DNA from: a virus
Length of the DNA: 64,000 nucleotides
Strand: one strand, 5' to 3'
Virus record (IMG/VR): IMGVR_UViG_3300021407_000013
Span: 11,146-75,145 of that record
Position 1 is the stretch's first letter. Each line of letters starts with the position of its first letter. The position numbers and the translations under genes were made by a program. Under the pieces are notes generated by a model. The model did not search any database. It had not been told where the DNA came from and was given only the letters and a program-made list of their open reading frames with translations. This document shows positions 10,616-54,714 of the stretch, in pieces.

Positions 10616-11524
10616 TTAACGCTTCGGTTGAGCAGGAGGCGTTCCAGGCGCAATCGGCTGGGTAGGCTGGCCGGCGCCAATCGGCGGCCGCGGAAGTGGC
10701 TGTCCAGGCTGCGGAGGACGCGCTGCTGAACCAGGAGGCCGTGGCTGAGTTGCTACAGGCGGACGCCCACCAGGAAGTCCCTGATCAGGATGCTCGCCAC
10801 CGGCGCCAGCGCCTTCATCGACACCGTAGTCAGGATCGGTTTCATGTTCCGGAATGGTGAACTTGCCATAACGGAGGCCGACGCCTTGGATCCAAACGAG
10901 GAACATATGCTCGCCAGTAGGTGCATCTGGCGGAAGCGGAGGCCAGATAGAGCCTGGAGGAAGATCCGGTGGTAGAGGATGACCAGCAACTGGCGGGATT
11001 GGATGCTCGGGATGCTCGCCTGGATCACCAGGAAGCGCGTTGTCTGGCTGCCCAGGAATGTGAATCGGATGCTCCGGCGTGTCGATTGGCGCATCAACAC
11101 CCCAATCCGGATCGGTCGGTCCCGGAGGCCATTCCGGCTTCGGCGGCTTGGGTTTGCCAGCCCACGGAGGACGATGACCAGGATGAAGATCGCCCTGTCC
11201 AAAGCCAGGATCGACAGGACGCCCAGGACGGGCAGGACCGCCGCCAACATGTGGAGGCCGCTCAGGACGATTGGGACCGCCAGGAAGACCCTGATCAGGA
11301 CGACCGCCTTCACCTACGCCCCAACCTGGATCGACAGGACGCCCAGGACGCGCAGGACCGCCGCCAACATGCGGAGGACGACCAGGAACGCCATATCCAG
11401 GATCGACAGGTAGACGACTTCCGCCAGGAAGACCCTGATCAGGATGCGCGCCTTCATCGACGCCGTAGTCAGGATCAGTCGGACGACCGCTCCTATCGAG
11501 GAATTGAATATATGCGAGAGGCAT
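10616..11524 (-). CDS. Pro/Gly-rich repeat protein
   Basis: Repeats (V/T)DP(G/D)(Y/W/F)G and PDQGLPG; AAGGAG RBS; GC-rich codon usage. Confidence 0.75.
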   Translation of the reverse strand: MPLAYIQFLDRSGRPTDPDYGVDEGAHPDQGLPGGSRLPVDPGYGVPGRPPHVGGGPARPGRPVDPGWGVGEGGRPDQGLPGGPNRPERPPHVGGGPARPGRPVDPGFGQGDLHPGHRPPWAGKPKPPKPEWPPGPTDPDWGVDAPIDTPEHPIHIPGQPDNALPGDPGEHPEHPIPPVAGHPLPPDLPPGSIWPPLPPDAPTGEHMFLVWIQGVGLRYGKFTIPEHETDPDYGVDEGAGAGGEHPDQGLPGGRPPVATQPRPPGSAARPPQPGQPLPRPPIGAGQPTQPIAPGTPPAQPKR

Positions 11525-11689
11525 CAGTTTCTCCTTAGACGGTTAGGTTTCTTCGTGGTCTGGCTATTTATACGCGTGGCGTCCCAGACAAAAGTGCAGG
11601 GTGGAATCCAATCGACGGGAGGCCGAGACCGCTCAATTGCCGCGAGTTGGGAGGTATTCTGCGACAATTTCACCCCTGCTGAAGTTTAT

Positions 11690-15336: not shown

Positions 15337-15509
15337 TCACAGGCGTTAGTCATGATAAAGGAAATGTCATTATTAACTTCGGTAAACCAGTAGCATGGGT
15401 AGCATTTCCTCCAGAAATGGCATTTCAATTCGCTCGATCAATTGCCACACACGCCCATGCTGCTATGACTGATATTACGGAGACTACTGATGGGAACGAA
15501 AAAGGATGA
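15255..15509 (+). CDS. Hypothetical protein
   Basis: GPT.DYP.GKLN.EDEG...FGKPVAW; GGAG RBS. Confidence 0.6.
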   Translation: MANDLGPIGPTNDYPKGKLNNEDEGGLITGVSHDKGNVIINFGKPVAWVAFPPEMAFQFARSIATHAHAAMTDITETTDGNEKG

Positions 15510-15738
15510 GACTGTAATATGCTGTATGAGGGCCTCGCCAAAAGGCCCAAATACTGACAGCATCTTATCCAGTTGCAACAAATGTGGCCATCCTATCTGG
15601 ATCGCCAAAAGCACTCCAATCATTGAAGGTGCGCGCTTTCTGTGTATGCAATGCGTTCCATGGAACGAAGTGACAGATGTAGCACCGCCGACGATGGATC
15701 AAATGTCTGACGTTCTGAGATCCAAAAATAGCAGGTAA
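15490..15738 (+). CDS. Zinc-ribbon protein
   Basis: CNKC...CMQC. Confidence 0.55.
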   Translation: MGTKKDETVICCMRASPKGPNTDSILSSCNKCGHPIWIAKSTPIIEGARFLCMQCVPWNEVTDVAPPTMDQMSDVLRSKNSR

Positions 15739-15742
15739 CGAA

Positions 15743-16216
15743 ATGAAACTCTTAGAGGTAGCAAGCGAAGGTGACTTACGTTACTGGATCCAAGAATGGA
15801 TATTTGAATGTGAAGGGAGGCTTTCGTTAGAGTGGGTTGAACCTATGATGTATGGGAGCACTGTTGGCGCTCCAGATTGCAAAATCAAATTTGCCAATCA
15901 TACCATAGGATTAGAACTCAAATATCTATTGAGTACGAAGAAGGGCATAAAATGGACAGTGCGTCCAGCTCAAAGGCGCTACCATCATATGAACGTAAGA
16001 AATGGTGGTCGAAGTGCGTTATTAGCATGGATAGCAGCCAAAGAAGAACTTGTGCTAGTACGTGGCGATCATATACCACTACGAGACTACGCCTCAGATA
16101 AGGAGTCTGGTTGCGCCCACGGATTAGTCAAATTGGACTCATTTGGTATGTCAGATAAACAAGCCATATTTAGTTTAGAAAAATTGATCTTCAACGACGA
16201 GTATTGGGAGAGATAG
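15743..16216 (+). CDS. PD-(D/E)XK / VRR-NUC-like nuclease
   Basis: GAPD...LELK...RPAQ..YH motif. Confidence 0.6.
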   Translation: MKLLEVASEGDLRYWIQEWIFECEGRLSLEWVEPMMYGSTVGAPDCKIKFANHTIGLELKYLLSTKKGIKWTVRPAQRRYHHMNVRNGGRSALLAWIAAKEELVLVRGDHIPLRDYASDKESGCAHGLVKLDSFGMSDKQAIFSLEKLIFNDEYWER

Positions 16217-16462
16217 ATGGTTAAGATGATTCCGCCACAATACAAAAGAGGAGGATCACACGCCATGCCACCAAATGACAAGATCGCTCATCATACTCTG
16301 CACCAGAAGGTCCAGAAGCTCGATGGCTACAAATATCCAGGCATTATTGTGGCTATATTCACTACCACAGAAGGTCGAGTCCGTTACGTGGTGGAAGCTG
16401 ACCATCCCGATTTTCGTGGTATGCTTCATATATTCTCTGATTCTCAACTTGAGGAAAGGTAA
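16217..16462 (+). CDS. Hypothetical SH3-like protein
   Basis: V.K..GY.YPG.IV..F.T..G..RYVVE...G.LHIF. Confidence 0.55.
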   Translation: MVKMIPPQYKRGGSHAMPPNDKIAHHTLHQKVQKLDGYKYPGIIVAIFTTTEGRVRYVVEADHPDFRGMLHIFSDSQLEER

Positions 16463-16708
16463 ATGAAGTGCCAAGTTTGCCAAGGCAAAACATATCTTGA
16501 AAGATGGGCTTGCCCAGAATGTCTTGGCAGCGGCATAACGTCATGTTGTGAAGGAAACCCAAATACAAATAAGTGGTTTGAAGCGCCCATCTCAGACCGA
16601 TTAAAAGAAGCTGAAATATTGATTGTCAGTACAAAATTTGATAAAGATGGTAATTTAGTAAAAATCAAAACTCTCGTAGATCAAAAACAGGATGATAAAA
16701 ATGAATGA
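16463..16708 (+). CDS. DnaJ-type zinc-finger protein
   Basis: CQVCQG...CPECLGSG. Confidence 0.5.
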   Translation: MKCQVCQGKTYLERWACPECLGSGITSCCEGNPNTNKWFEAPISDRLKEAEILIVSTKFDKDGNLVKIKTLVDQKQDDKNE

Positions 16709-16913
16709 GCCAGAACGCCCGATGTTTGAGTGTGACGCAGAAGTCTATACATGCCCATATTGTATGAAAGCTGTTGTGGTATATGTAGAATTAGATGGCA
16801 GTGGTATCATTTCCAGACCTGAATATGATTTAATTGCTAATTGGGTTTATCATTCCGCGTGTTGGGATAAACAGATGAGAGAGCATCCGCCAGGAGAACC
16901 AAATGTCAAATGA
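16692..16913 (+). CDS. Zinc-binding hypothetical protein
   Basis: CPYC...H..C. Confidence 0.5.
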   Translation: MIKMNEPERPMFECDAEVYTCPYCMKAVVVYVELDGSGIISRPEYDLIANWVYHSACWDKQMREHPPGEPNVK

Positions 16914-17223
16914 TAAAGCAGAGCTCAGAGCGTTTCTCAAAGAGCGCGATGATTTATTCAAAAATCCAACACTAGAAGCAGCGCAATCTTGGTGGCTCAA
17001 GGCTGGTCATCCGCAATGGGCAAGAGAAGATGTACCACTAGCCGCGGTCCACAAGGCACGATTACAGTGGTTAGAATCCACAGATGCTATGATAGAAGAA
17101 TCTATCAAATGGCTACAAGAGCATGATTATTCAATCGAATGGCAAGGAGCGCCACCACTCACGCCAGAACGCCGCGATGCTGATAGAGTGTCTTTGGGCA
17201 AGAAACCGCTAGGTCAAACATGA
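16903..17223 (+). CDS. Hypothetical protein
   Basis: AGGAG RBS, overlapping operon structure. Confidence 0.6.
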   Translation: MSNDKAELRAFLKERDDLFKNPTLEAAQSWWLKAGHPQWAREDVPLAAVHKARLQWLESTDAMIEESIKWLQEHDYSIEWQGAPPLTPERRDADRVSLGKKPLGQT

Positions 17224-17405
17224 AGAGACTCATCATAGCTCTATTCACAGTGTGGTTTTTATTTGTCGCAGCAATGGTCTACTCAGTTTTGGCTTATGGA
17301 CCATCAGACCATTCTAATAGTGCTATGGACTATGATGAGTCACAATTCCTATTCTGGCACGTAATCATGCCAGTTCTGCACTCAAATATGAACTAGGAGG
17401 TCGCT

Positions 17406-17828
17406 ATGGGAGAAGCCAAACGTAAATATCTTCTTGTCAAAGTTGTATCCAAAAAACCTGAATTCCAAACGACAAGGCTCAGCACAGGCTGCAATTGTCT
17501 GAACTGTGGCATCTTGATTGACGCCGCCACCAGCGTTAACCATAAGCATACACCATACCCAGGTGCCATAGCCATCTGTATGATCTGCTCTCATATAATG
17601 GCATATGACGAGAGAATTCATCTGCGAGAGCTCAATGATGAAGAAATATTGTTAATAGCTGGTGACAAAGATATACTCTTCTTGATCAACGGCCTTGGTG
17701 GCGCCAAGAAAGAGTGGGAATCAAAACATGGCGAAGGATCGTGGGGTAAAACCAGCAGGGACCGGCTCGCACAAGCGCAAGCCAGAGTTGAAGCTAAACA
17801 GGAAGCGGCCAGGACTAAGGGAGAATGA
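17406..17828 (+). CDS. Zinc-binding hypothetical protein
   Basis: AGGAGG RBS; CLNC...CMIC. Confidence 0.6.
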   Translation: MGEAKRKYLLVKVVSKKPEFQTTRLSTGCNCLNCGILIDAATSVNHKHTPYPGAIAICMICSHIMAYDERIHLRELNDEEILLIAGDKDILFLINGLGGAKKEWESKHGEGSWGKTSRDRLAQAQARVEAKQEAARTKGE

Positions 17829-18027
17829 ATATGAATGCGCCGCCTGCCATAAGGTCTTCACCAAAGGAGTGTCGGATGAAGAAGCTCTGGCGGAAGCTGC
17901 GGTATTATTTCCTACTGTACCAATTGAAGAAACCAGTCTAGTCTGCGAGGACTGTTTTCAGGAAATGATGGCAGACATCAAAGCCAGGCCATGGGCCTAC
18001 CCACCTTTACCAGATGAGGATAAATAA
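17695..18027 (+). CDS. Zinc-binding hypothetical protein (true start probably further downstream)
   Basis: CAAC...CEDC. Confidence 0.45.
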   Translation: MVAPRKSGNQNMAKDRGVKPAGTGSHKRKPELKLNRKRPGLRENEYECAACHKVFTKGVSDEEALAEAAVLFPTVPIEETSLVCEDCFQEMMADIKARPWAYPPLPDEDK

Positions 18028-18665
18028 TGGCATATGACCTGTTTGATAAGGATGGCAAGCGCAAACGGCGTGAGGGCTCTGGGGTAGCGCCCAGACCACT
18101 CGATGAAGTAGAGCGTGAAATCGTCAGAGCCGACATGGCTGAGTTAATCGCCAGAGAAAAAGAAAATGGTGATTGGGCTAAGTGGGAGGAATCGCAGCGC
18201 CCAATTTCGCAACTGCGATCCCTTGACCGCGATATAGTACATATCACTGTTACACTGACAATTGACGGCCACATCATCCCAAACCCACCAGACACAGAAG
18301 ATGTAGTCAGACGTGAGATGGAATCACGCTTCCTCCGCTATGAGCGCCAAGAAATGCCCAGTCGCATTATGGCCCTCGAACATGACAGGAGGTTACATCG
18401 ACCTGCACCAGAGGTTGGTGATAGAGGAATATTCAATGGTTATATCGCACCAAGTTCTCCACGTTTCTATACGGGTCAGATTACTCCTGAGATCTGGGAA
18501 CTCTTTGTAGGGCGCGCTCCAGTCAATGATGACATAGAGCGCGCCAACTGCTACCAAGAAGGTATGCTTGGCCATCAAAGCTGCGGTTGGTGCCACGACT
18601 GCATGAAGCCACGCTATGCTTGCGGCCATCTATGTTTCCCAAGTAGTTCCACACCAAGTAGGTGA
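18027..18665 (+). CDS. Hypothetical protein with Cys-rich C-terminus
   Basis: DDIERANC...GH..CGWC..C..PRY.C. Confidence 0.6.
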   Translation: MAYDLFDKDGKRKRREGSGVAPRPLDEVEREIVRADMAELIAREKENGDWAKWEESQRPISQLRSLDRDIVHITVTLTIDGHIIPNPPDTEDVVRREMESRFLRYERQEMPSRIMALEHDRRLHRPAPEVGDRGIFNGYIAPSSPRFYTGQITPEIWELFVGRAPVNDDIERANCYQEGMLGHQSCGWCHDCMKPRYACGHLCFPSSSTPSR

Positions 18666-18668
18666 CTC

Positions 18669-18971
18669 ATGAAAAAGAAAACCAAGAAAATAATCAAACT
18701 CAGAAAACTCATCCGCGAAACCATTAGTGAGTCTATGGACTACAACTTCCACGGCCCTAGAGGCGCCACTGGTCCGCAAGGTCCAATGGGTCCTCAAGGT
18801 CCGCCAGGCCCACCAAACACTTCAATTCATGGCCTAGCCGAAGAACTGGCATGGTTGAAGAATGAAGTAGCTCTGATGAAGTCAGAGATTGACGATCGCG
18901 CACCACGCCCATCCAAACGTAAAGTCAGGGAGTTTACACATGAAAATAAAGGACTACCACCCAAAAACTGA
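18669..18971 (+). CDS. Short collagen-repeat/coiled-coil protein
   Basis: Seven G-X-Y triplets. Confidence 0.55.
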   Translation: MKKKTKKIIKLRKLIRETISESMDYNFHGPRGATGPQGPMGPQGPPGPPNTSIHGLAEELAWLKNEVALMKSEIDDRAPRPSKRKVREFTHENKGLPPKN

Positions 18972-19155
18972 AGAAGAGGCCGTCGGTTGGTTGATGGAAG
19001 AATCATGCGAAGTGGTTCTCACTATAGGTCGCTGCATGAGGTTTGGAATTGAAACTGTGCATGAGGGCCGCACCAATCGTCAGATTCTCCTCGATGAGAT
19101 GAATGACCTTCGCAATGCCCTGTTTGAGGCTGAGACATGGATAGCGAGGAAGTGA
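18940..19155 (+). CDS. MazG-like nucleotide pyrophosphohydrolase
   Basis: LMEES.E.....R..RFG...N...L.DE..D helical acidic pattern. Confidence 0.5.
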   Translation: MKIKDYHPKTEEEAVGWLMEESCEVVLTIGRCMRFGIETVHEGRTNRQILLDEMNDLRNALFEAETWIARK

Positions 19156-19334
19156 TGACTAAGGAGCAAATCAAAATGACTAGTTGCGCCCAGTGCAAGA
19201 AAGAGTTCCAGCCTAAGACACCACAGCATAGGTTTTGTTCAATGGACTGTTCCAAACGGTTCTATCGCCAACTACGAATGTTAAAGCGAGATGAAAGATG
19301 GCAGAAGATTAATGGATTGAATTTACGTGAATAA
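19155..19334 (+). CDS. CxxC..FCSxxC zinc-finger protein
   Basis: CAQCKKEF...RFCSMDC. Confidence 0.55.
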   Translation: MTKEQIKMTSCAQCKKEFQPKTPQHRFCSMDCSKRFYRQLRMLKRDERWQKINGLNLRE

Positions 19335-19640
19335 TCTGTAGTAATGAGGGTGAGTGAATTTTTGAGGGATAAATTCTGACGGTCACCACCAAAGGTGGCC
19401 CTGAAACAGGTAAAACAGTAGACGGCCCCGACCTTTCGGCTGACCAGAAAACGCGCATAAACGACCGTACACGGGCGCGGACGCGCGGACGCATATTCCC
19501 TAGCGCGAATAGTCCGAGGGCAATGGGCCAGCCTCTAATGCGATTTAAACGCATATCGCAAACGAGCGCATAGGCGACACATAGGCGACAAGCCTGTCAG
19601 TACATTACAAAAAATTAATGTTCGCAAACGTCGTTTGCGC

Positions 19641-19670
19641 TTGTATCGCACAAGCTAACGTGCTTTATAG
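19641..19670 (+). promoter_or_regulatory. Putative early promoter
   Basis: TTGTAT-N14-TGC-TTTATA, same spacing as the other promoters. Confidence 0.4.
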
Positions 19671-19743
19671 GCGTTGCACCGCAAAACGCGGTGCGGGCGG
19701 CAGCTATGCGCTCCGGCCCTTTTCTAGCAAAAGGTCTAGTACA

Positions 19744-20238
19744 ATGCAAAACGACAAGGTTAAGACTGCGGACGCTATCGCGCAAGTTAGCGCGGAAAAC
19801 GCGGAATTGCGCGCTAGCGTTATTGCGCTCGTTAGTGCAATGCCTGCCGCTATCGCGGACGCCGTTAAGGCGGCAATCCCTGCCCCGACAACGCGCGCGC
19901 CTCGCACGGCTCGCGTTGCGGTGCAAATGTCCCCTGCGGACGCGGACGCCGCTATGTGCGGTTTCGTTAAGAAAGGGCCGCGTCGCGATTTCTTTCTTGC
20001 GTTGCGCGGTCTCGCGGACGGCGTATATCCTTTGTCCGATTTCGCGGGCGTTTCGCTCGCGGACGCACAAGTTGTGTATCGTCGCCTTAGCGGCAATCGG
20101 ACGGGCGGGCGCGTTACGGAAAGCTTTTTCGACCGATTAGGCTTTTCGCTCGCAATCGACAACGAAACGCGCGGCAAGGCGGACGTTATCGTTACGCGCA
20201 AGGCGGACGAAAAGGCGGCTGACGAGGTCGTCGCCTAA
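19744..20238 (+). CDS. Ala-rich hypothetical protein with anomalous GC-rich composition
   Basis: Has its own promoter, AAGG RBS and terminator; almost no TGR/YCA trinucleotides. Confidence 0.7.
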   Translation: MQNDKVKTADAIAQVSAENAELRASVIALVSAMPAAIADAVKAAIPAPTTRAPRTARVAVQMSPADADAAMCGFVKKGPRRDFFLALRGLADGVYPLSDFAGVSLADAQVVYRRLSGNRTGGRVTESFFDRLGFSLAIDNETRGKADVIVTRKADEKAADEVVA

Positions 20239-20246
20239 CGCGAAAC

Positions 20247-20277
20247 GGGCGGGCGCGCAAGCGCCCGCTCTTTTCTT
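20247..20277 (+). terminator. Rho-independent terminator
   Basis: GGGCGGGCGC-GCAA-GCGCCCGCTC followed by TTTTCTT. Confidence 0.8.
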
Positions 20278-20303
20278 GCCCTCTAACTTCAGGACCAACA
20301 AAC

Positions 20304-20579
20304 ATGTCACGATCATTCTTCATAGGCGTCGCTGTGGTAGGCTCACTGATGGCGCACCAAGTGGACCGAGCTCATGCTCAACTCACTCACATTCAACCGA
20401 GCGAACTGGTTGACGACTCAGTAGCTCAAGGCCATTTCAGGGAATGTTTGAGAACCAGAAAGGACATTCACGGAAACGTGGACGCTTTTGGATGCAATCA
20501 GATACTCAAAACTGAGACCAGGAATCCCACCTGGAGTTGCTCCAACAATCTGTCCATCCAGACCTGCGATCAGGACTAA
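20304..20579 (+). CDS. Secreted hypothetical protein
   Basis: Signal peptide ending AHA; four Cys. Confidence 0.55.
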   Translation: MSRSFFIGVAVVGSLMAHQVDRAHAQLTHIQPSELVDDSVAQGHFRECLRTRKDIHGNVDAFGCNQILKTETRNPTWSCSNNLSIQTCDQD

Positions 20580-20582
20580 CTG

Positions 20583-20604
20583 ATGGGGCGCAAGCCCCAT
20601 TTTT
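20583..20604 (+). terminator. Rho-independent terminator
   Basis: ATGGGGC-GCAA-GCCCCAT followed by TTTT. Confidence 0.75.
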
Positions 20605-20906
20605 CATGCCCAGTTCGTTCAAACCATGACTTGAGTTTGATGATGATGAGTCCATGACTGTCAACCCATGATTTGAATTTGATTCAAAGATCATTCACCA
20701 TGGTCATTTTCATCCATTGACTGGTGATATCATGAGTGTCATTGGCTGATGGCTGTGCACCAACGTAGATTGATGATGATGATTTCATGGTGACCATTGG
20801 CTGATGGGAGCGCCAAATCATGGTCTGAAAATGTCACCGACGTCGTCACTACCATTGATCTACTGAAATTCCGAAATTGACCAGAAGCGCCCCATACTAT
20901 CCTATT

Positions 20907-21068
20907 TGTCCTGTTTGTCTTATTTCAATAAAAATAAACAGGACACGAAAAGCGCAACGATTACAAGGGGTTACCACTGATTGTCCGGTTTGTCCGGTTT
21001 GTCCGTTTATTTTTCATACCTTTCGCGCGAAGCCTGATATACAGCTAACTGCCCCACGCAAACAGGAC
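20907..21068. repeat. Iteron-like repeats (candidate replication origin)
   Basis: TTGTCCG(G/T)T x3 in tandem at 20981-21007; TGTCCTGTTT/AAACAGGACA inverted pair at 20907/20936; AAACAGGAC at 21060. Confidence 0.5.
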
Positions 21069-21153
21069 TCAATTGGTGAGCCCGAAAACCCTTATATCCC
21101 AGTAACTTACGCTCGTCTGTTAATGTAAAACATTAACCGTACAATTCTACTGA

Positions 21154-22725
21154 TCAGAAACGTACATGGCCACTCATGATACTGGTCTCTGTAAAAGTAG
21201 GATATTCCCACTCTTGGCTACCATTACCATAATCATATTCTGTTTTGATTCTAAAATTCATCAATTCTCTACAGACTACCAATTTCGGAATAACATGCAC
21301 ATTCATTCGCTCGCTATTACCTGGGCTACCACTGGTATATTTATCACTACCAACAATATTGAGTGGTCTACCATTTTTAGAATATTGTATCAAACCATTA
21401 ACTACTAATGGCATCAATTCTTTAAATTGGATACCAAATTCACGCTCATTTAATTTATGTCTGAATTGGGCAGTAGCATTATAATCCATCAATAGTTTCT
21501 CCTTGATAACCAAATAGCCCTTGTCCTCGTAATATTTGACAAATGGTAATTTACCTGAACATAGAATATCAAACCACCATCGCTCTACACCAGCCATGGA
21601 CGCTGTTTTTTGGTCAATTTGCGCCTCAGTAACGAGGGCAGTTCTGAGATTGACATCAATTTTATAATTCAATAGATAATGCATGAGCGCTTCAAGACCG
21701 TCATTATTGAGCATTTCATATTCTAATGAATCAAAATACTCTTTCATATCTTTCTGGGCACTACTGACATTCAATACAAAGAACCTACGCTCATCATGAG
21801 ATGCTGGTACTATCCAATCAGCATTACCTATAATGATAGATCTGATATAATTTATGACACTGCGACCTGGCAAGTTCTTTGGATTGATAAATAGACTATC
21901 TCCAGTAATAATATGTTTCAATGTGGACTCATGGGCTTTATCACCAGCCCAAATGGCTTCTTCCAGACATAACAATATGACCTTCTCAAGATGATCATTA
22001 TGATTGCCAAATATGCTATTCTTATTATCAATTGGGAGATATAATTTTGTCTTACGCTCATTATTCTTTCCATTCATCAACCTGCCTAATATGAGGGCGA
22101 AATATGATTTGCCAATACCTTTGAGACCTTTCAACACAACTGATGTGCCGAGTTTATTCCACGGCTCTTGTATTAACTGGGCGCACCAACACATAAGCCA
22201 ATGATAATGGGTTTCGTTACCGCTGCATATGATATTCTTCACATAATCCAAAAATAATACACATGAACCTTCTTTTGGATCAATTGCAAATCCTGGCCAT
22301 GTATTATATACACCAGATCGCATTGTTTTGGAATCAAATTTATATTTGGGATCGAATACTATTCCACGCTCATACGTGCGCCTCATGTGGTATTCCAACC
22401 ACAATTTGCTTACTGGAAATGGCTTTGCATTTCCTTCATCATCTTTGGTAACAATCTTAACATTTTCCAATGAATCTATAAAATCCTTCTTGGTCATTAA
22501 ATAGTATTCACCATCTATCCTCTCATTTAGAATCATAAATTTGCCTAATACCAATATGATAGCGTAATGTTGATCTACCCAATCAATAGCTCCTTGTTTG
22601 GAATCTAATTTGGGCGCGCCATGACTGGTTGTTTGGCTCGTTTGAAATCTAGGATCATCAACGATCTTTTTGATGCGTTCTGAATTTGGGAATAGGTCTT
22701 CATCAGCCATGGTGCGCCCGCCCAT
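21154..22725 (-). CDS. SF3 / DUF5906 primase-associated helicase
   Basis: Walker A GLKGIGKS, Walker B LCLEEA, IIIGN and ERRFFV. Confidence 0.8.
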   Translation of the reverse strand: MGGRTMADEDLFPNSERIKKIVDDPRFQTSQTTSHGAPKLDSKQGAIDWVDQHYAIILVLGKFMILNERIDGEYYLMTKKDFIDSLENVKIVTKDDEGNAKPFPVSKLWLEYHMRRTYERGIVFDPKYKFDSKTMRSGVYNTWPGFAIDPKEGSCVLFLDYVKNIICSGNETHYHWLMCWCAQLIQEPWNKLGTSVVLKGLKGIGKSYFALILGRLMNGKNNERKTKLYLPIDNKNSIFGNHNDHLEKVILLCLEEAIWAGDKAHESTLKHIITGDSLFINPKNLPGRSVINYIRSIIIGNADWIVPASHDERRFFVLNVSSAQKDMKEYFDSLEYEMLNNDGLEALMHYLLNYKIDVNLRTALVTEAQIDQKTASMAGVERWWFDILCSGKLPFVKYYEDKGYLVIKEKLLMDYNATAQFRHKLNEREFGIQFKELMPLVVNGLIQYSKNGRPLNIVGSDKYTSGSPGNSERMNVHVIPKLVVCRELMNFRIKTEYDYGNGSQEWEYPTFTETSIMSGHVRF

Positions 22726-22731
22726 ACGTGA

Positions 22732-22911
22732 TTAGTTATTGGTTATATTAACTTTCACATTCTTAAGTTTTTCTCTCAAATCATCTTTTGTTATTATTTT
22801 ATTATGCTTCATATCAATAACACATTCTTTGCCTTTGATAATAACAGTGGCGTAACGCTCATTCATCCATTCCATAGCTTCTTTTTGTGATTTGAAGATG
22901 ATATCTGGCAT
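22732..22911 (-). CDS. 59-aa paralogue of the helicase N-terminal domain
   Basis: Read by hand: MPDIIFKSQKEAMEWMNERYATVIIKGK...TKDDLREKLKNVKV; GGAGG RBS. Confidence 0.6.
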   Translation of the reverse strand: MPDIIFKSQKEAMEWMNERYATVIIKGKECVIDMKHNKIITKDDLREKLKNVKVNITNN

Positions 22912-22926
22912 TGCTACCTCCCATTA

Positions 22927-23115
22927 TTATGCTGCGAATAGGTCACGCTTCTTGGGCGCCTCAGCCTCTTTTTTAGCTTTTTTGGCCTTCCAATAGAAGC
23001 GCCCTCTGCATGGATCTGAACAAAATCTTTGTGTTGGTTGAACTTTAACAAATTCAGTGCCACAATAGGCACATTTAACGATGAATTTGCTCATATCTAA
23101 ATCTGACATCATCAC
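22927..23115 (-). CDS. CxxC..FCSxxC zinc-finger protein (ends KRDLFAA)
   Basis: CAYCG.EF...RFCSDPC; AGGAGG RBS. Confidence 0.65.
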   Translation of the reverse strand: MMMSDLDMSKFIVKCAYCGTEFVKVQPTQRFCSDPCRGRFYWKAKKAKKEAEAPKKRDLFAA

Positions 23116-23136
23116 CTCCTGCTACCGGGAACGGAC

Positions 23137-23165
23137 AGAATAGCGCAATTCGCGACGTTAGGCAA
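23137..23165 (-). promoter_or_regulatory. Sigma70-like promoter
   Basis: TTGCCT-N17-TATTCT. Confidence 0.55.
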
Positions 23166-23241
23166 GAAGAATCGTATTTACGTCTTAATTATGTTGATTA
23201 TCAGCCTTAATTTCGCCGCAATTCTCAGATATAATATTGAT

Positions 23242-23532
23242 ATGTCCGAAGATTCACCCGAGACAGCCAGACAGCGCGCCACAAGGATCTGGCGGAATGC
23301 GTGGATTCAAGGCCGTACTGAGACTCAAGATCAGGAAGAAGAATTAGCCAAAGTAATTGAGCAAGAGAGGTTACTCAATCAGGGGCGGACTGCTCTCATT
23401 AGAGCTATTACAAAGGTGATATCTGAGCAGAGGCACTCATTCAATTTGGTACATTATAAGTCAATGATTAGTAGGCGGAAGCGGAAATTATTGGAAGAGA
23501 AATTGAGGCGGTTGGAGGCTGAGAATGACTAA
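23242..23532 (+). CDS. Hypothetical protein
   Basis: Coupled to the TerS-like gene. Confidence 0.5.
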   Translation: MSEDSPETARQRATRIWRNAWIQGRTETQDQEEELAKVIEQERLLNQGRTALIRAITKVISEQRHSFNLVHYKSMISRRKRKLLEEKLRRLEAEND

Positions 23533-24169
23533 TCCAATACATGACATAGATCCAGAACCTACTGTCATGTGGGAAGAGGACTATGAACGCCTCAAGAAAC
23601 GACAGAAAATGGACGCTGCAATTGAGCGCTCCAATAAGGAGAAAGCTGACGCTATTGCTCGTGAATTATATAAAGAGCAATTGAAGATCAAAGATAAGAT
23701 TGAATATACAGAAGAGTTGGCGACAGAGATTTGTGAGAGGATCAGTGCTGGTGAGCTATTGATCAACATATGTCGTGATTCACATATGCCAACCGTGCGC
23801 CGCTGTTCAGCATGGCTCAAATCTGAAGCTGATTTCCAAGCACTCTATAATATGGCTATTGCAGATAGATTGACTATATTTGAAGAGGAAGTGATCTCAA
23901 TTGCTGATGATGCAGCACGTGATATGAAAGAAATACAGAAATCTGGGAAAACGATTAGAGTTCAAGATGCTGAGGTCATTGCGCGAGCGAAGCTCAGAGT
24001 TGAGGTGCGCTTCAGGCATTTGAAAGCTGGGCGACCTGGTAAATGGGGTGATAGCACCACTCTCATCACTAAATCAGAAGATGAAAATATTGCTGAGATG
24101 CCATTGTCTGAGCTGGAAAAGAAGATTGCTGAACTTGAACACAAGGATCGGGTGGTCAAGGCAGTGTGA
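23525..24169 (+). CDS. Terminase small subunit-like protein (Sf6 gp1-type HTH)
   Basis: YTEELA.EICERI..GE.L..IC....MP......WL....F...Y..A...IADD pattern. Confidence 0.7.
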   Translation: MTNPIHDIDPEPTVMWEEDYERLKKRQKMDAAIERSNKEKADAIARELYKEQLKIKDKIEYTEELATEICERISAGELLINICRDSHMPTVRRCSAWLKSEADFQALYNMAIADRLTIFEEEVISIADDAARDMKEIQKSGKTIRVQDAEVIARAKLRVEVRFRHLKAGRPGKWGDSTTLITKSEDENIAEMPLSELEKKIAELEHKDRVVKAV

Positions 24170-24170
24170 T

Positions 24171-24191
24171 GGGGGCGCCACAAGCGCCCCC
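24171..24191. terminator. Hairpin between convergent genes
   Basis: GGGGGCGC-CACAA-GCGCCCCC. Confidence 0.6.
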
Positions 24192-24196
24192 TGTTA

Positions 24197-24436
24197 TTAT
24201 AGTGATTTTGCCTTTTCAACAAAATCTGATAGTAATTTTTTGCCAGATATATCTTCTTTGATATAATTCTCCTTTAGCTCTTGGAGAATATCAGATGCCC
24301 ATTTGAGATGTCTCTCTGCATTATTCAATGCAGCTACATCTAATGGTTCTGATTTTGAAAATCTAAGAGCATTTCTCAGATTTTCCCTTAGTTCAGTAGT
24401 ATAATATTGAGTATCACGCACTGTTTTGGTTGCCAT
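24197..24436 (-). CDS. Hypothetical protein
   Basis: GGAG RBS. Confidence 0.55.
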   Translation of the reverse strand: MATKTVRDTQYYTTELRENLRNALRFSKSEPLDVAALNNAERHLKWASDILQELKENYIKEDISGKKLLSDFVEKAKSL

Positions 24437-24490
24437 ATTATTCTCCGTTCATTTGGCAAAATTGCCTATCAAATGAATTGAGTATCATGG

Positions 24491-25814: not shown

Positions 25815-26031
25815 TTTTCTCTCCTAGTTGATCTCGTCAGGTAGTGTATTACACTACTATTATCAGCTCATAATTATAGCGTAAGCTGATAATTTCGATC
25901 TCAGGAAACGACGCAACCATTTTGGTAGTTACTTAACCGCATGGCATTCTTCTAATACCAGGTTTGTGTCGCTTTTCGTCGAAATGACTGCGCCCGAGTT
26001 TTCTCTCGGGTGAAATTCCTGCTTACAACCT

Positions 26032-26060
26032 ATAGTAGCACATTTTCGTTGCCAAAGCAA
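26032..26060 (-). promoter_or_regulatory. Sigma70-like promoter
   Basis: TTGCTT-N14-TGC-TACTAT. Confidence 0.65.
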
Positions 26061-26472: not shown

Positions 26473-26623
26473 GCATTTTCTTTTTATCAAAATCACCATT
26501 CCTCATTCATTGGCTGAATAATGGCTGATGAAATCATTTCATTCAACATTTGAAGCTTCATGGGTCAGTGATAATCATGGTATTTTCCCCTTTTGTTCCC
26601 TTAAAGTTCTGCTTTTGTTCCCC

Positions 26624-26652
26624 TTGCTTTCTTTTCCGGGACGTGCTACGGT
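26624..26652 (+). promoter_or_regulatory. Sigma70-like promoter for the ribozyme-containing early region
   Basis: TTGCTT-N14-TGC-TACGGT; the spacer shares TCTTTTCCGG with promoter 41485-41513. Confidence 0.6.
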
Positions 26653-26907
26653 TTTCTTTCCGCGGAGGAAACCGCGGCGCAGCCTGAGACTTGGCGAAAA
26701 GCGAAACAAACCCGGCAAGATGACTCGCCGAGCGGTTAAGTAAGTGGTTAGGCAGTCTCTCCCCAAAGGGCAATAAGCACCAGGGAGAAAAACCGGCCAT
26801 TTGCGTCGTTTCGGCGGACGGAAATATCCGCCTGAGATAACAACACAGAGCACAGCGCCCTGAGAAGGGTGCTGTGTTCGCTGGAGTTATTTCTAGCAAG
26901 GAAAAGT

Positions 26908-39394: not shown

Positions 39395-39985
39395 ATGGAA
39401 ACAACCAGATTTTATACAACTGCTGACGGAGTAAAATTTCCGCTATATGAAGCAATGTATGACTATCACTTTACTGTCCATAAAGTTGATTGTGTAAAAG
39501 CCAAAATCGCAGACCCTGAGGGTTGTTTATTGGCTTTAGGTATCAAACATGATAAGAAAGTTTTGGCAGCATATATTGGCAGTGGCAGAGATGCTTATAT
39601 TATCTTCAAGGCCAGACCTGGTGCTCCACATTCTTTTCAACATGTGGCACATGCTGTGCATTTTATGATACCAACTACTTCTGGTAGAGTACGTGACTAT
39701 TTCGATGCCCATGAAGGTAAAGAAATTTTAGCATTGAAACTAACTCCACCTACTGCTACTCAAACAAAAGACGCAAAAGCAACTTATGATAAAGTTCGTG
39801 CTGAAAGAATTAAAAATGGAGAAATTGTACCTGTTCCAAGAAGACAACCTAGAAGTACAAGAATTACCAGATTAGGTGTTCCGCATCGGCCAAAGGCAAT
39901 AATTTCAAGAGAAGGAGTAACTGTTCCTGAAAGAGCAGATACTCTAAGAGACAGTGACATTGTAGACAATGTTATGAATAACTAA
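39395..39985 (+). CDS. Hypothetical protein
   Basis: 196-aa ORF. Confidence 0.6.
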   Translation: METTRFYTTADGVKFPLYEAMYDYHFTVHKVDCVKAKIADPEGCLLALGIKHDKKVLAAYIGSGRDAYIIFKARPGAPHSFQHVAHAVHFMIPTTSGRVRDYFDAHEGKEILALKLTPPTATQTKDAKATYDKVRAERIKNGEIVPVPRRQPRSTRITRLGVPHRPKAIISREGVTVPERADTLRDSDIVDNVMNN

Positions 39986-41220
39986 CCAAATAAATCCTTA
40001 TCAGTTTGAGAGATAGATGTTTTCTGTCTCTCAAGTTCTTCTTTCATTTTGATGTAGTCTTCTTCCCACATGACTTCACCTATCCACGGCGGCTTAAATC
40101 CATTTTCCTTTGCTGCCCAAATAAGACCTCCAAGACTTTTAGTCCCATTTCTAGGAAATTCTGGGCGATGCGATTTCCACTGTCGCATGAAGTAGCCCTG
40201 TCCGCGACCCAATACACCGTATCTGGCGCCGCCAGAAACTGCTTCAAGAAATAGCTCTGTGGCTTCATCTATCGTTAGATTATTTGCCTCGTTTTCATCA
40301 TGTATTGCACCTATTAATGGTAACATTACATGAAGTGTATACCATTCGTTTGTATCTGCCAACCCTTCGTCTCTAATGAACTCTATACATGCCAACGCTT
40401 TCTTATACGCTGTCCACTTAGAATCTTTGCGAGGTATAAATGGTTGTCTCTGCGACTGTGCGCGAGTTGGCGTTATATGTGGCACTATTGATCTCAATAC
40501 ATCAATGCTATATTTACAACAATAATTTTTGGCTATGTATGCTAACGCTACTTGCTGGCCTTTGGTTTGCTTCTCTAGTTTTGGATAATTTACCGTTCCT
40601 GGAAGACGCATCACTCGGTCTACGTTGGACATATTATCAACTTTAACTGGAAGGTGCGCTACCTTGGAGCGCAAGAACGTCTCGAAATCATGCCCAAGAT
40701 TAGTAACGAATGAGCGCATCTTAATGGCCCATTGGTTTTCTTCTTTCTTCTTCTCAGTATCTGCTGGAAGATGTAATCTGATTCCTTCCCTTCTATCAAG
40801 TAGATAGATAAGATGGAAACCACCGCCTGTGTTAATGACTAGCGATGGTTTTAATCCAAGTTCTTTATCTATAAAATCCAAAACTTTTTCTTGATCTCTT
40901 TCAAAAGATGTAAAATCTATATCAAACGCTAAGGCTCTAATGCCTATGATATCATCTATGTTATTTTTGCCACCTTTGCCTTGTCTGTCATAAATATGAC
41001 AAGGTATGTTGACACTATAATATACATTGGATTTGCGAGCTTGGCGCTTCTTGATGTCTGCTATGAGCAAGTCTCTTTGTTGCGCCTCAAAAGTGCGTCC
41101 AGCTTCCCAAACGGGTCCGTTATCAGGCCCTCCGAATGGTGCTTCAGAAGCAATCGTGTGGCGCCCATTAGGTTCTAGGATGTCAAGAAACTGAAGAGCT
41201 TGTTCTATTTTGAGTTCCAT
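39982..41220 (-). CDS. RepB/AEP-like DNA primase
   Basis: VYYSVN, AFDID, TGGGFHLIY and RVMRLPGTVNYP. Confidence 0.75.
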   Translation of the reverse strand: MELKIEQALQFLDILEPNGRHTIASEAPFGGPDNGPVWEAGRTFEAQQRDLLIADIKKRQARKSNVYYSVNIPCHIYDRQGKGGKNNIDDIIGIRALAFDIDFTSFERDQEKVLDFIDKELGLKPSLVINTGGGFHLIYLLDRREGIRLHLPADTEKKKEENQWAIKMRSFVTNLGHDFETFLRSKVAHLPVKVDNMSNVDRVMRLPGTVNYPKLEKQTKGQQVALAYIAKNYCCKYSIDVLRSIVPHITPTRAQSQRQPFIPRKDSKWTAYKKALACIEFIRDEGLADTNEWYTLHVMLPLIGAIHDENEANNLTIDEATELFLEAVSGGARYGVLGRGQGYFMRQWKSHRPEFPRNGTKSLGGLIWAAKENGFKPPWIGEVMWEEDYIKMKEELERQKTSISQTDKDLFG

Positions 41221-42141: not shown

Positions 42142-42567
42142 ATGAAGTACAAAGTAGAGTTTTCAGGTAACGCAGAAATCATGTTTGCTATGATGGCAAA
42201 GCTTTTGCCAGACGAACTTAATGTTCATGTCGAAGAACTGCCTGAACCCAAAGAAGAACATTTCTCTAAAGTGGCGCAACTCGTATCTAATAACCAAAAA
42301 CTAATGGCTCCTCCAAAGATAAAGCCAAAACGTATGGAGCATTATAAACATCCAAGCGGCAAGACTGTTCAAGATTTTGTCATTGAGTTTCTTAAGACCC
42401 GCCCATCAGCAACATGGGCAGAAATGAGCAAATATACTGTAGAGATTGGTTATAATAAAAGCTCAATCAATAATGCAGTAACTAGATTGATGTACAAAAA
42501 GGTTCTTGAGAAGGTGGCACCTGGAGTATATAGACTCACAAAGAAATCACACGATAAACAAGTATAA
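42142..42567 (+). CDS. Winged-helix DNA-binding protein
   Basis: C-terminal SINNAVTRL...LEKV..GVYRL. Confidence 0.6.
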   Translation: MKYKVEFSGNAEIMFAMMAKLLPDELNVHVEELPEPKEEHFSKVAQLVSNNQKLMAPPKIKPKRMEHYKHPSGKTVQDFVIEFLKTRPSATWAEMSKYTVEIGYNKSSINNAVTRLMYKKVLEKVAPGVYRLTKKSHDKQV

Positions 42568-42576
42568 ATTTTTCGT

Positions 42577-42605
42577 TTGCTTTCGTGCCGAAAATGTGCT
42601 ATGCT
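42577..42605 (+). promoter_or_regulatory. Sigma70-like promoter of the replication operon
   Basis: TTGCTT-N14-TGC-TATGCT. Confidence 0.65.
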
Positions 42606-42617
42606 TAACAGTAGAGG

Positions 42618-46975: not shown

Positions 46976-47247
46976 AAAAGCCACCGCCTTTAGGTGATCA
47001 AGCAATACAACCAGAATACAAAGAGAAGATGATAGCTCTAGCGCAAGCTGTCGATGAACTCTTTAATGGAGAAGCCAAAGGCAAAGACAAAAAAGTTGGC
47101 TTTGTATTGCTCGTATTTCCATTTGGAAACGAAGATGGGCGCTGCAATTATATCAGCAACGGTGCTGATAGAAAAGACATTGTTGTTATGATGAAAGAGC
47201 AGATTAAACGATTTGAAGGCCAAAAAGAAGAAGTTGGGAGAGCATAA
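46972..47247 (+). CDS. Conserved phage hypothetical protein
   Basis: GFVLLVFPFG....CNYISNG. Confidence 0.6.
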   Translation: MKKPPPLGDQAIQPEYKEKMIALAQAVDELFNGEAKGKDKKVGFVLLVFPFGNEDGRCNYISNGADRKDIVVMMKEQIKRFEGQKEEVGRA

Positions 47248-54603: not shown

Positions 54604-54645
54604 GAAAAACATGTCTGATCAGTTAAATAAAAGCAAAGATTTTGC

Positions 54646-54674
54646 TTGCAATCGACGGCGGAATGTGCTATCTT
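54646..54674 (+). promoter_or_regulatory. Sigma70-like promoter
   Basis: TTGCAA-N14-TGC-TATCTT. Confidence 0.6.
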
Positions 54675-54714
54675 GTACCAGGTGCTACATCCAGCACCGT
54701 CAAGGAGAGCACGT

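Follow-up and report, generated by a model that had tools for sequence, protein, structure and literature searches.

Even spacing of a three-base word in a soil phage genome, its absence from one gene cassette and its density beside an origin-like region

What kind of process would strip a three-base word from one phage promoter and gene, and fill the adjoining non-coding DNA with the same word? The question is raised by an uncultured soil phage with a 75-kb record, 64,000 nt of which form the window. The word is TGR (TGA or TGG) with its complements YCA (TCA or CCA), both strands being counted together. The first-pass annotation reported none of the four triplets from about 19600 to 20219, and the exact span is 19598-20219 (622 nt, 0 words); the word-free gap runs from 19597 to 20220, or 623 nt, as compared to 107 nt for the window's second-longest gap. 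The tract at 20581-20880, for which about 58 words were reported, holds 59, whereas shuffles give 41.5±2.8 and never more than 50. The observation is confirmed as real, and is larger than first reported. The features in and next to the word-free span are the following.

19445-20288, no strand: TGR/YCA-poor island, 4 words in 844 nt, GC about 0.60, CpG-rich
19538-19554, no strand: palindrome ATGCG-N7-CGCAT, conserved in the alignment, upstream of the promoter
19598-20219, no strand: zero-word core, within the 623-nt gap
19641-19666, plus strand: predicted promoter-like motif TTG-N16-GTGCTWY, with four further members of its class in the window
19744-20238, plus strand: cassette gene, encoding a protein of 164 aa and lacking Trp, TCA and CCA codons
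20247-20280, plus strand: predicted intrinsic terminator of the cassette, a 10-pair stem (20247-20270) with 9 GC pairs, then a T run
20304-20579, plus strand: variable slot for a 91-aa gene, filled by unrelated genes in the related loci L005, L007 and L008

The island contains upstream control DNA, predicted promoter, gene and terminator, the promoter and terminator having both been anticipated by the first-pass annotation. Dinucleotide-preserving shuffles of the core retain 17.3±3.2 words, with a minimum of 8 among 2000, whereas the gene holds 1 word as compared to 13.5±2.5 by synonymous-codon permutation (minimum 5 among 5000) and 20.6±3.2 in codon-order shuffles. Because all shuffles exceed the observed count, GC content, dinucleotides, amino acids and codon usage do not account for the desert, and the explanation by composition that was to be checked by shuffling fails.

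The depletion is also specific to the word. In a scan of all 32 strand-symmetric trinucleotides over four islands, CCA/TGG is present at 0.09 and TCA/TGA at 0.13 of expectation, with the next at 0.57. The CCA/TGG gap (19528-20295, 767 nt) coincides with the TCA/TGA gap (19597-20220), the two being among the three most extreme gaps in 32 word classes, and on the given strand of the island TGA, TGG, TCA and CCA are depleted to an equal degree. The words gained inside the island are CGC/GCG and GCA/TGC, not CGR, and the CpG observed/expected ratio is about 1.8. Four other candidates were considered and rejected. A general purge of palindromes is not seen, as GCGC, CGCG, TCGA and TGCA occur about as often as expected (0.77-1.21) and GATC, CCGG and CATG alone are low, with small counts. 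A motif longer than TGR does not emerge, the excess in flanking genes being spread across many TGR-containing 4- and 5-mers. Genes overlapping in other frames are not supported, since the alternative reading frames are mostly open but their stop positions vary among relatives, and the Chi-like word GCGGACG is frequent in the window's island, yet replaced in L008.

Both the desert and the dense tract are kept in six related metagenome loci (L003-L008) at 72-84% protein identity. In five relatives the cassette gene carries 0-4 words, as compared to 15-23 under synonymous permutation, and the tract retains a density of 0.17-0.21 words per nt. In the case of L008, the tract is 65% identical and shares 36 of 58 sites, such that about 40% of sites have turned over with density kept. 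A more distant locus, L012, keeps the ATGCG/CGCAT palindrome one base shorter, with an N6 spacer. In G001, a diverged 80-kb relative, the positional counterpart of the cassette has a 727-nt gap without TGA/TCA, and its gene has 0 of these words vs 5.5 expected (P 4e-4); the counterpart retains TGG/CCA (12 vs 14), and so is not fully site-free. No similar DNA was found in the phage collection and no relatives in bacterial genomes, and DNA encoding the distant protein relatives P0010, P0011 and P0013 was not found among viral contigs.

Away from the cassette locus, the four words recur at ruler-like intervals, one about every 13 bases. The gap CV of TGR/YCA, 0.574, is the lowest of 496 word pairs (median 1.005, second lowest 0.757), as compared to 0.85-0.90 for each word class alone and 0.97 for TGY/RCA. 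Under a geometric model with a 2-nt refractory gap, 392 gaps of more than 30 nt and 151 of more than 40 nt are expected, with 78 and 16 observed. Inside genes, the CV is 0.554 vs 0.780±0.010 after codon permutation, and 56 gaps exceed 30 nt, as compared to 311±12; gaps of at least 40 nt are mostly intergenic. The word autocorrelation is negative as far as lag 11, and word positions show neither helical or 12/24-bp periodicity nor any spectral peak at 4-60 nt. The both-strand union of words is far more even than either strand alone. The ruler was sought in lambda, M6 and CAjan and is absent there (CV 0.82-0.84), and it is replicated in G001 (CV 0.611, rank 1), where both words are used. Palindromes of 6 nt are avoided genome-wide (0.60-0.64), and the four that contain TGR/YCA are not spared.

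Departures from the ruler are found at a class of promoter-like motifs. The motif TTG-N16-GTGCTWY has 5 matches in the window vs 0.63 expected, all five in site-free gaps, with the cassette as the sole case where an entire unit is free. The other four gaps are as follows.

26014-26051, no strand: site-free interval of 38 nt round the centre of the promoter-like motif at 26035-26060 (minus strand), which has one TGR/YCA word inside it
26581-26684, no strand: site-free gap of 104 nt round the promoter-like motif at 26624-26649 (plus strand)
42550-42618, no strand: site-free gap of 69 nt round the promoter-like motif at 42577-42602 (plus strand)
54622-54677, no strand: site-free gap of 56 nt round the promoter-like motif at 54646-54671 (plus strand)

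The five copies with 20 nt on either side hold 6 words vs 25.3 expected (P 5e-6), and four divergent intergenic regions likewise hold 6 vs 25.2. In G001, the strict motif is present in a single copy. The first-pass annotation had proposed that an early gene was kept free of the word for the benefit of host RNA polymerase. For the promoters, the proposal is consistent with the five site-free gaps; however, the genes behind the other four motifs have normal TGR density, and polymerase access therefore fails to explain the purged gene body of the cassette.

The opposite departure is an excess of the word round a region that looks, from its sequence, like a replication origin.

15400-24450, no strand: word-enriched domain of about 9 kb, whose genes exceed synonymous-codon permutation, with the cassette as a hole within it
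20592-20886, no strand: TGR/YCA-saturated non-coding tract, about 1 word per 5 nt
20638-20649, plus strand: first (TGA)4 run, read from the sequence, in repeat D3
20771-20782, plus strand: second (TGA)4 run, read from the sequence, in repeat D3
20900-21068, no strand: iteron block of TTTGTCC-type repeats at 9-nt spacing in two groups (D1, D7, I3, I5, I6)
21154-22725, minus strand: helicase-type replication protein (DUF5906), matching the C-terminal half of phage primase-helicase families

Within the domain, the TCA/TGA ratio is 1.22 (z 7.4) and the CCA/TGG ratio 1.17 (z 5.8), as compared to 1.03 and 1.07 elsewhere in the genome. Each of the four words is over-represented on the sense strand, symmetrically for both strands, and CGA/TCG (0.64) and CCG/CGG (0.63) drop by about as much as TGR/YCA rises. 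The enrichment is kept in L005, L007, L008 and L012, and the 91-aa gene slot is itself word-rich, with 35 vs 26.2 expected. The peak is the dense tract, where the 200-nt window at 20623-20822 holds 46 words, as compared to a genome mean of 15.3±3.4 and 28 in the next best window. The tract has three 31-nt repeats, and 9-nt inverted repeats (ATGGGGCGC / GCGCCCCAT) at its two ends. It adjoins the iteron block, which has an A+T-rich centre and inverted AAACAGGAC boxes and is separated by ~90 nt from the DUF5906 stop codon, an arrangement conserved in the alignment of relatives. A repeat array with an A+T-rich segment beside an initiator or helicase gene, the mark of an iteron-type origin, is found at 20900-21068, and the block and adjoining tract look origin-like. 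Cumulative GC skew and transcription both change direction at this region. The tract gave no support for structured RNA (z -1.5 and -0.8), and Rfam gave 0 matches at gathering score in the whole window, with chance-level matches only at this locus. The idea that the tract is a hypervariable target was rejected, since its divergence among close relatives is no higher than that of its flanks. With 31-nt repeats and (TGA)4 runs beside iterons and a helicase gene, the tract offers no support for the earlier suggestion of an injection stop, insulator or decoy.

The duplex DNA of this phage lineage is under selection for the TGR/YCA word. Almost throughout, the word is required about every 13 bp, is rarely more than 30 bp and seldom less than ~11 bp from the last, is ~20% denser over the ~9 kb round the origin-like region, and reaches 1 per 5 bp in the 295-bp tract. 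Two settings exclude it: the DNA round a single class of promoter-like motifs, and the whole transcription unit of the 164-aa cassette. The even spacing, the word-free cassette and the packed tract together suggest that a strand-blind reader acts along the whole DNA, and some DNA-level reader of TGR very probably exists. Such a factor would read duplex TGR irrespective of strand, occupying or altering about one helical turn per site, and its action there would be incompatible with promoter use. The context-specific process at 5'-TGR-3' that was originally postulated, with hypermodification or protein binding offered as its nature, is supported by purifying selection at codon junctions, equal depletion on both strands, depletion upstream of the predicted promoter, conservation, and genome-wide even spacing.

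One candidate for the reader is the product of the cassette. The structure model of the 164-aa protein has a long N-terminal helix and a C-terminal winged-helix-like domain, with a pLDDT of about 80-90 over residues 60-150. By VIA-align, the model matches OmpR/PhoB-type and PurR winged helices weakly (Z 5.0-5.6, rmsd 3.1-3.9, 69-82 residues), and the best Foldseek match is Fur, at E 0.11. The protein has no Pfam match at E<=0.01 (Trans_reg_C and the like included) and no NCBIfam family, and a search of the ESM Atlas gave no usable match. Its sole PHROG match is to a family of unknown function (E 0.0015), and an HMM search of 1.8 billion proteins yielded only 5 related clusters. The codon usage of the gene groups with that of GC-rich structural genes (r 0.52), not with the genome bulk (r -0.02).

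With a probability of roughly one in three (about 0.35), the reader is a DNA-binding protein that coats the genome non-covalently and leaves no covalent mark. The coat would nucleate on the dense tract beside the origin-like region, and its prime candidate would be the cassette's own 164-aa product, because of the long helix, the winged-helix-like domain, and the GC-rich codon usage that it has in common with structural genes. Further candidate DNA binders of the domain are a TerS-like 214-aa protein and small Zn-finger proteins. The cassette gene, left naked, could then be transcribed while the remaining DNA is coated. TGA would seem a stronger site than TGG.

A number of observations sit less easily with a coat. 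The fold match (Z 5-5.6) behind the predicted binding role of the 164-aa protein is weak and comes without a sequence family. A 3-bp site is of very low specificity for a winged-helix protein, transcription factors rarely call for the removal of each and every half-site, and helical or 12/24-bp periodicity is lacking. The cassette counterpart in G001 keeps TGG/CCA, though the G001 ruler uses both words. The naked gene body is unexplained, given the normal density of the genes behind the four other motifs, and a cluster of nucleotide-metabolism genes would fit a base modification.

A covalent mark, whereby a phage enzyme modifies a base in the TGR context, for instance T as in TG/TC-specific thymidine hypermodification, is only slightly less probable than a coat. 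The even spacing would then serve gap-free coverage by the mark, with promoters and cassette left unmarked as the adduct hinders promoter recognition. Short-context marks have been published: T at TG/TC is hypermodified in phages M6, ViI and phiW-14 (PMC6449724), phage T-dioxygenases prefer NTG or NTC (PMC13229309), and CAjan carries preQ0 at GA and GGC (PMC7544227). A mark would agree with a signal that is strand-blind, 3 bp long and extends into non-transcribed DNA, and with promoter-like motifs in site-free gaps. Beside the phage's own replicase (DnaE/DnaQ) are genes of predicted function for a ThyX-family protein (83.8 bits, below the NCBIfam cut-off of 87.9), a MazG-like dNTP diphosphohydrolase (dGTP_diPhyd_N), a HAD phosphatase (HAD_PNKP) and a flavoprotein. 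However, an enzyme for the base hypermodification suggested by the first-pass annotation was not recovered: the three families searched by name, PF12851 (TET/JBP), PF02195 (ParB_N) and PF01702 (TGT), gave nothing across the 75-kb record at E<=1, and a scan of about 60 proteins revealed no further modification enzyme. M6 and CAjan, which carry known short-context marks, show no ruler for their motifs, and the strong avoidance of palindromes suggests DNA that is still exposed to restriction. That word-holding 6-mer palindromes are not spared is also at odds with a protective mark.

The remaining explanations are much less probable. Immunity to a frequent cutter or nickase, where a host or phage nuclease or defence system recognises TGR and the site-free cassette enters or acts first, is improbable. 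Enzymes with 3-nt recognition sites are encountered in chlorella viruses, and the hole is a self-contained unit of promoter, gene and terminator; yet harmful sites should be depleted everywhere, whereas the word is evenly maintained and is enriched round the cassette, and the predicted fold of the product resembles a DNA binder, not an inhibitor or nuclease. The island also lies about 30 kb from the contig ends (G000), leaving the earlier suggestion of a first-injected genome end unsupported; compared with G000, G001 seems to be offset by about 3.1 kb, with a match at one end only of these assembled contigs. A comparably small chance attaches to a reader in replication, with TGR/YCA as the template triplet of an AEP-type primase or the loading triplet of a helicase, and it is just as hard to credit that the word is spread evenly for priming and densest at the origin. 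Primases read trinucleotides, a primase-polymerase-like gene of AEP type is present at 39982-41220, the dense tract adjoins iterons and helicase gene, and the strand-blind signal agrees with lagging-strand synthesis on both templates. Priming nonetheless needs far fewer sites than one per 13 nt, does not account for promoters and one gene that lack the word, and leaves the exclusion within 11 nt unexplained. Slighter still are the prospects of a context-dependent mutation or repair bias between CGR and TGR (for instance, CpG deamination outside the island only) with no selection on the word. The reciprocal change of CGA/TCG and CCG/CGG in the enriched domain and the CpG-rich island speak for it, but a bias cannot yield even spacing (CV 0.55-0.57), cannot hold a zero count at codon junctions through 27% protein divergence, and does not predict an island that gains words other than CGR. 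An RNA-level cause, be it a MazF-like UGG/UGR endoribonuclease, a ribozyme core (CUGANGA) or a translation effect of UGA/UGG/UCA/CCA codons, is very improbable. Three-base mRNA interferases exist, and the hole coincides with a transcription unit; on the sense strand, however, the four words are depleted to the same degree, and this holds for every frame and for DNA lying upstream of the predicted promoter, and strand symmetry, including the greater evenness of the two-strand union, disfavours it. Least credible is an artefact of composition, with a GC-rich gene of recent acquisition lacking the words by accident of its bases, codons and amino acids. The island GC of 0.60 vs 0.43 for the genome, and codon usage resembling that of the phage's other GC-rich genes, are in its favour, but all shuffles reject it, other GC-rich genes have normal word counts, the hole is kept in six loci, and the artefact is regarded as refuted.

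Known systems share parts of this arrangement. The p6 protein of Bacillus phage phi29 is a genome-coating, histone-like early protein that nucleates near replication origins and reads a periodic bendability pattern (12/24 bp). The proposed coat would likewise be a small, abundant early protein on the whole genome, nucleating beside an origin and affecting replication and promoter use; unlike p6, it would read a 3-bp word with no periodicity, and the 164-aa protein, with no family match, has no sequence relation to p6. We know of no word-free gene in phi29. Phages with hypermodified DNA have in common with this one a 2-3-bp, strand-blind context that a phage enzyme reads genome-wide, but TET/JBP, ParB or TGT-type enzymes were not found here and the M6 and CAjan motifs are not evenly spaced. 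The first-step-transfer DNA of T5 is free of restriction sites and, like the cassette, is a self-contained early region purged of a recognition word; here, however, the word is a 3-bp non-palindrome that is positively maintained elsewhere, and the region is not at a known genome end. Restriction-site avoidance concerns 4-8-bp enzyme sites, mostly palindromic, whereas TGR/YCA is not a 4-8-bp palindrome and is neither neutral nor avoided elsewhere. Another parallel is provided by the GATC clusters of oriC and the dnaA promoter, which Dam and SeqA read, in that a short word, several-fold over-represented at an origin and read on the duplex, couples replication with promoter occlusion; GATC differs in being 4 bp, palindromic and not evenly spaced genome-wide, and no word-free gene is known to us in GATC systems. 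By analogy only, vertebrate CpG islands are promoter and gene-start islands that are the inverse of the bulk and stay free of a genome-wide mark, but they arise by the mutational decay of methylated CpG, as opposed to a word removed by selection in a ruled bulk.

Codon order across almost all genes of a 75-kb phage is held in check by a three-letter word, with a single gene and a single promoter class exempt, which implies a genome-wide DNA reader that, to our knowledge, is unlike the restriction, Chi, KOPS or GATC systems. It is possible, if speculative, that phage genomes carry an 'accessibility code', with words that differ between lineages. In such a code, a 3-bp word selected at even intervals through all genes would let a coat or mark cover the whole DNA, word-free windows would define open DNA (one promoter class and one master cassette), and a super-dense array beside the origin would seed the system. 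Ranking the gap CV over all word pairs is a cheap screen of viral databases for such systems, and a selective force on synonymous sites throughout these genomes would find its explanation once the reader, be it a coat or a novel base modification, is identified.

The first-pass annotation had described a stretch free of TGA, TGG, TCA and CCA (the TGR/YCA words) beside a non-coding tract loaded with about 58 of them, and counting bears out both observations. No word occurs between 19597 and 20220 (623 nt, with 17.3±3.2 expected from dinucleotide-preserving shuffles), the second-longest gap in the window being 107 nt, and the depletion remains under synonymous-codon permutation, with 1 word in gene 19744-20238 against 13.5±2.5 (minimum 5 in 5000 permutations). 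The word definition proved exact, since an unbiased scan of 32 strand-symmetric trinucleotides over four islands returned CCA/TGG (0.09) and TCA/TGA (0.13) as the sole outliers, and on the given strand the depletion is the same for each of the four words. When the longest gap of each of the 32 classes is ranked, CCA/TGG (767 nt) is first and TCA/TGA (623 nt) third, both coinciding at the island. The locus is arranged as follows:

19445-20288, word-poor island
from 19641, predicted promoter-like motif TTG-N16-GTGCTWY, from a motif search
19744-20238, cassette gene for a 164-aa protein
20304-20579, gene between cassette and tract
20592-20886, word-saturated tract

Long gaps in other words are found elsewhere. 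The interval 54823-55443 (~600 nt) lacks GTA/TAC and CTA/TAG, and lies within a GC-rich 303-aa gene of unassigned function (54646-55557) that begins at one of five promoter-like motifs; it could represent another word desert, or merely TA depletion in a GC-rich gene. Long gaps for TAA/TTA (666 nt), ATA/TAT and AAA/TTT occur at 10869-11535 within a GC-rich structural gene, probably a composition effect.

The saturated tract has 59 words in 20581-20880 compared with 41.5±2.8 in shuffles, and no other 200-nt window of the genome holds as many words as its core (46 versus 15.3±3.4). It is a 295-nt non-coding stretch flanked by a 9-nt inverted repeat, in which a 31-nt repeat occurs three times and a (TGA)4 run twice; no stable RNA structure was found in it. 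On its 3' side lies a block of TTTGTCC-type iterons spaced 9 nt apart, which also has an A+T-rich centre and inverted AAACAGGAC boxes and ends ~90 nt from the stop of a helicase-type gene; judged by sequence, this is the anatomy of a putative iteron origin. From 20572 to 20901 both AGG/CCT (a 329-nt gap) and TAA/TTA are absent, and since no word is more over-represented in the island than AGG/CCT, the inverse relation of island and tract extends beyond the TGR/YCA words.

Within the cassette, a conserved palindrome and additional conserved boxes precede the promoter-like motif, followed by the gene and a strong intrinsic terminator. Nine close homologues of the 164-aa protein were identified, and it matched no known family. 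In its structural model a 40-residue helix is joined by a disordered linker to a winged-helix-like domain (pLDDT 80-90 in the latter) with a weak predicted resemblance to OmpR/PhoB-type and PurR domains (Z 5.0-5.6). Codon usage follows that of the remaining GC-rich genes in the phage (r 0.5-0.6, versus about 0 with the bulk), and thus high GC is a property of the class, while the word purge is this gene's alone. Within the gene, the purge is brought about through codon arrangements yielding GCG/CGC and TGC/GCA at junctions, an effect that probably adds to the high CpG. The N-terminal 30 residues (19744-19850) are mosaic among relatives, with two versions discordant with overall similarity (alignment A1), an arrangement that suggests recombination within the word-free island. 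Upstream, the word CCTGTCAG (19593-19600), which contains one of the island's few residual TCA sites, is retained 5' of the promoter both here and in L007, a related metagenome locus (about 2780-2790), though not at the same position, and so may be an operator.

Six non-identical, although non-independent, related loci (72-84% protein identity) also have an island of 620-770 nt poor in the words and, after it, a tract with roughly double the background density; their cassette genes have 0-4 words versus 15-23 under permutation. The gene between cassette and tract is a swap slot, with unrelated genes in L005, L007 and L008, and terminators, tract and iterons are retained where it has been exchanged. 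Word density of the tract is likewise maintained, with ~40% of individual sites turned over in L008, and in all clades the tract is most enriched for TCA/TGA (2.3- to 3.7-fold), ATG/CAT and CCA/TGG. In the more distant clade L012/L013, corresponding to the diverged 80-kb relative G001, the helicase is 62% identical and a GC-rich gene with a weak profile match to the cassette family (hhalign E 0.057) occupies the cassette position; it avoids TGA/TCA (0 versus 5.5, P 4e-4) but not TGG/CCA (12 versus 14.1).

With this locus left out, the words are evenly spaced throughout the genome (mean gap 13.0 nt), with a gap CV of 0.574, the lowest among 496 trinucleotide-class pairs (runner-up 0.757, median 1.005). 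The CV is 0.85-0.90 for each class alone, 0.79-0.84 for each strand alone and 0.97 for TGY/RCA, meaning that the four words fill one another's gaps irrespective of strand. Gaps of >30 nt (78 versus 392 expected), of >40 nt (16 versus 151) and of 3-5 nt are all under-represented; the autocorrelation stays below zero up to lag 11 and shows no helical peak. Within genes the CV is 0.554 compared with 0.780±0.010 after synonymous permutation, indicating that even spacing shapes codon order across the genome. The same regularity ranks first in G001 (CV 0.611), and was not found in lambda or in M6 and CAjan, phages with published short-context modification (CV 0.82-0.84, ranks 4-12); nor are the known modification motifs of the latter two evenly spaced.

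Even spacing lapses in 22 gaps of at least 40 nt, the majority intergenic. Five copies of the promoter-like motif lie in the window (0.63 expected), and these predicted promoters are centred in site-free intervals of 620, 38, 104, 69 and 56 nt, one copy having a word near the edge. Across the motifs together with 20 nt on either side there are 6 words versus 25.3 (P 5e-6), and four divergent intergenic regions have 6 versus 25.2.

The window covers bases 11146-75145 of a single 75,145-bp viral record classed as linear by IMG/VR and estimated as 94% complete by CheckV, with related contigs from soil metagenomes. Minus-strand structural genes fill the left third, and a run of small genes on the plus strand (13.9-20.6 kb) terminates at the cassette/tract locus, to the right of which lie the helicase-type gene (DUF5906) and a TerS-like gene. 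Farther right are small-gene operons, a ligase, a ThyX-family/MazG-like/HAD/flavoprotein cluster, DnaQ, DnaE and an SNF2 helicase, with lysis and tail-fibre genes at the right end. With 83.8 bits, the ThyX-family protein (47247-47990) narrowly misses the NCBIfam equivalog threshold of 87.9, which would fit a diverged function. In GC-rich gene 56915-57490, a PEP-CTERM sorting signal (E 1.3e-6) hints at a Gram-negative host with exosortase, and the strong avoidance of six-base palindromes in the whole record (observed/expected 0.60-0.64) suggests exposure to host type II restriction. No Rfam family, hammerhead ribozymes included, reached gathering score in 1-64000.

Around the locus, genes on both strands (~15.4-24.4 kb) carry all four words above the synonymous-permutation level (TCA/TGA 1.22, z 7.4; CCA/TGG 1.17, z 5.8; elsewhere 1.03 and 1.07), with CGA/TCG and CCG/CGG correspondingly depressed. 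On the sense strand this excess is symmetric; it is distributed across many longer words, and flanks in relatives are likewise enriched. An Sf6-type small-terminase-like gene (23525-24169), distant from the structural module and beside replication genes, lies in this domain with one of the largest excesses seen (z 5.3).

The strand-blind behaviour, the action at codon junctions, the reach into untranscribed DNA and the positive and negative selection on one word argue together for a reader acting on duplex DNA, in preference to one acting on RNA, a mutation bias or a harmful nuclease site. The context-specific process at TGR proposed in the first-pass annotation is thereby upheld. Its suggested link to RNA polymerase fares less evenly: the promoter-like motifs in site-free gaps favour it indirectly, whereas word density is ordinary in the genes that follow the other four motifs. 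An injection stop found no support, nor did a first-injected end, the island being ~30 kb from the contig ends; a related record matches the start of the 75-kb record ~3 kb from its own end, as a shifted assembly would, with one end matched only.

Either of two kinds of reader would fit: a coat bound non-covalently, or a covalent mark placed at TGR. For the mark, short-context marks are published and a nucleotide-metabolism cluster adjoins the phage's own replicase; however, TET/JBP, ParB and TGT genes are absent, and six-base palindromes bearing the word are avoided like others, such that the DNA seems unprotected from restriction. These same two observations favour a coat, which we tentatively prefer by a slight margin over the mark, at a probability of about 0.35, as do the DNA-binder-like product of the cassette, its GC-rich codon class shared with structural genes, and the super-dense array adjoining the origin-like region within the enriched domain. 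Neither coat nor mark accounts for this single gene body being word-free, or for the G001 cassette purging TGA/TCA only; TGA would be the stronger site. Either reader would require one site per ~30 bp or less, would benefit little where sites lie less than one helical turn apart, and would not be tolerated at promoters. If the reader is a coat, the super-dense array beside the origin-like region, inside the enriched domain, would serve as its nucleation site.
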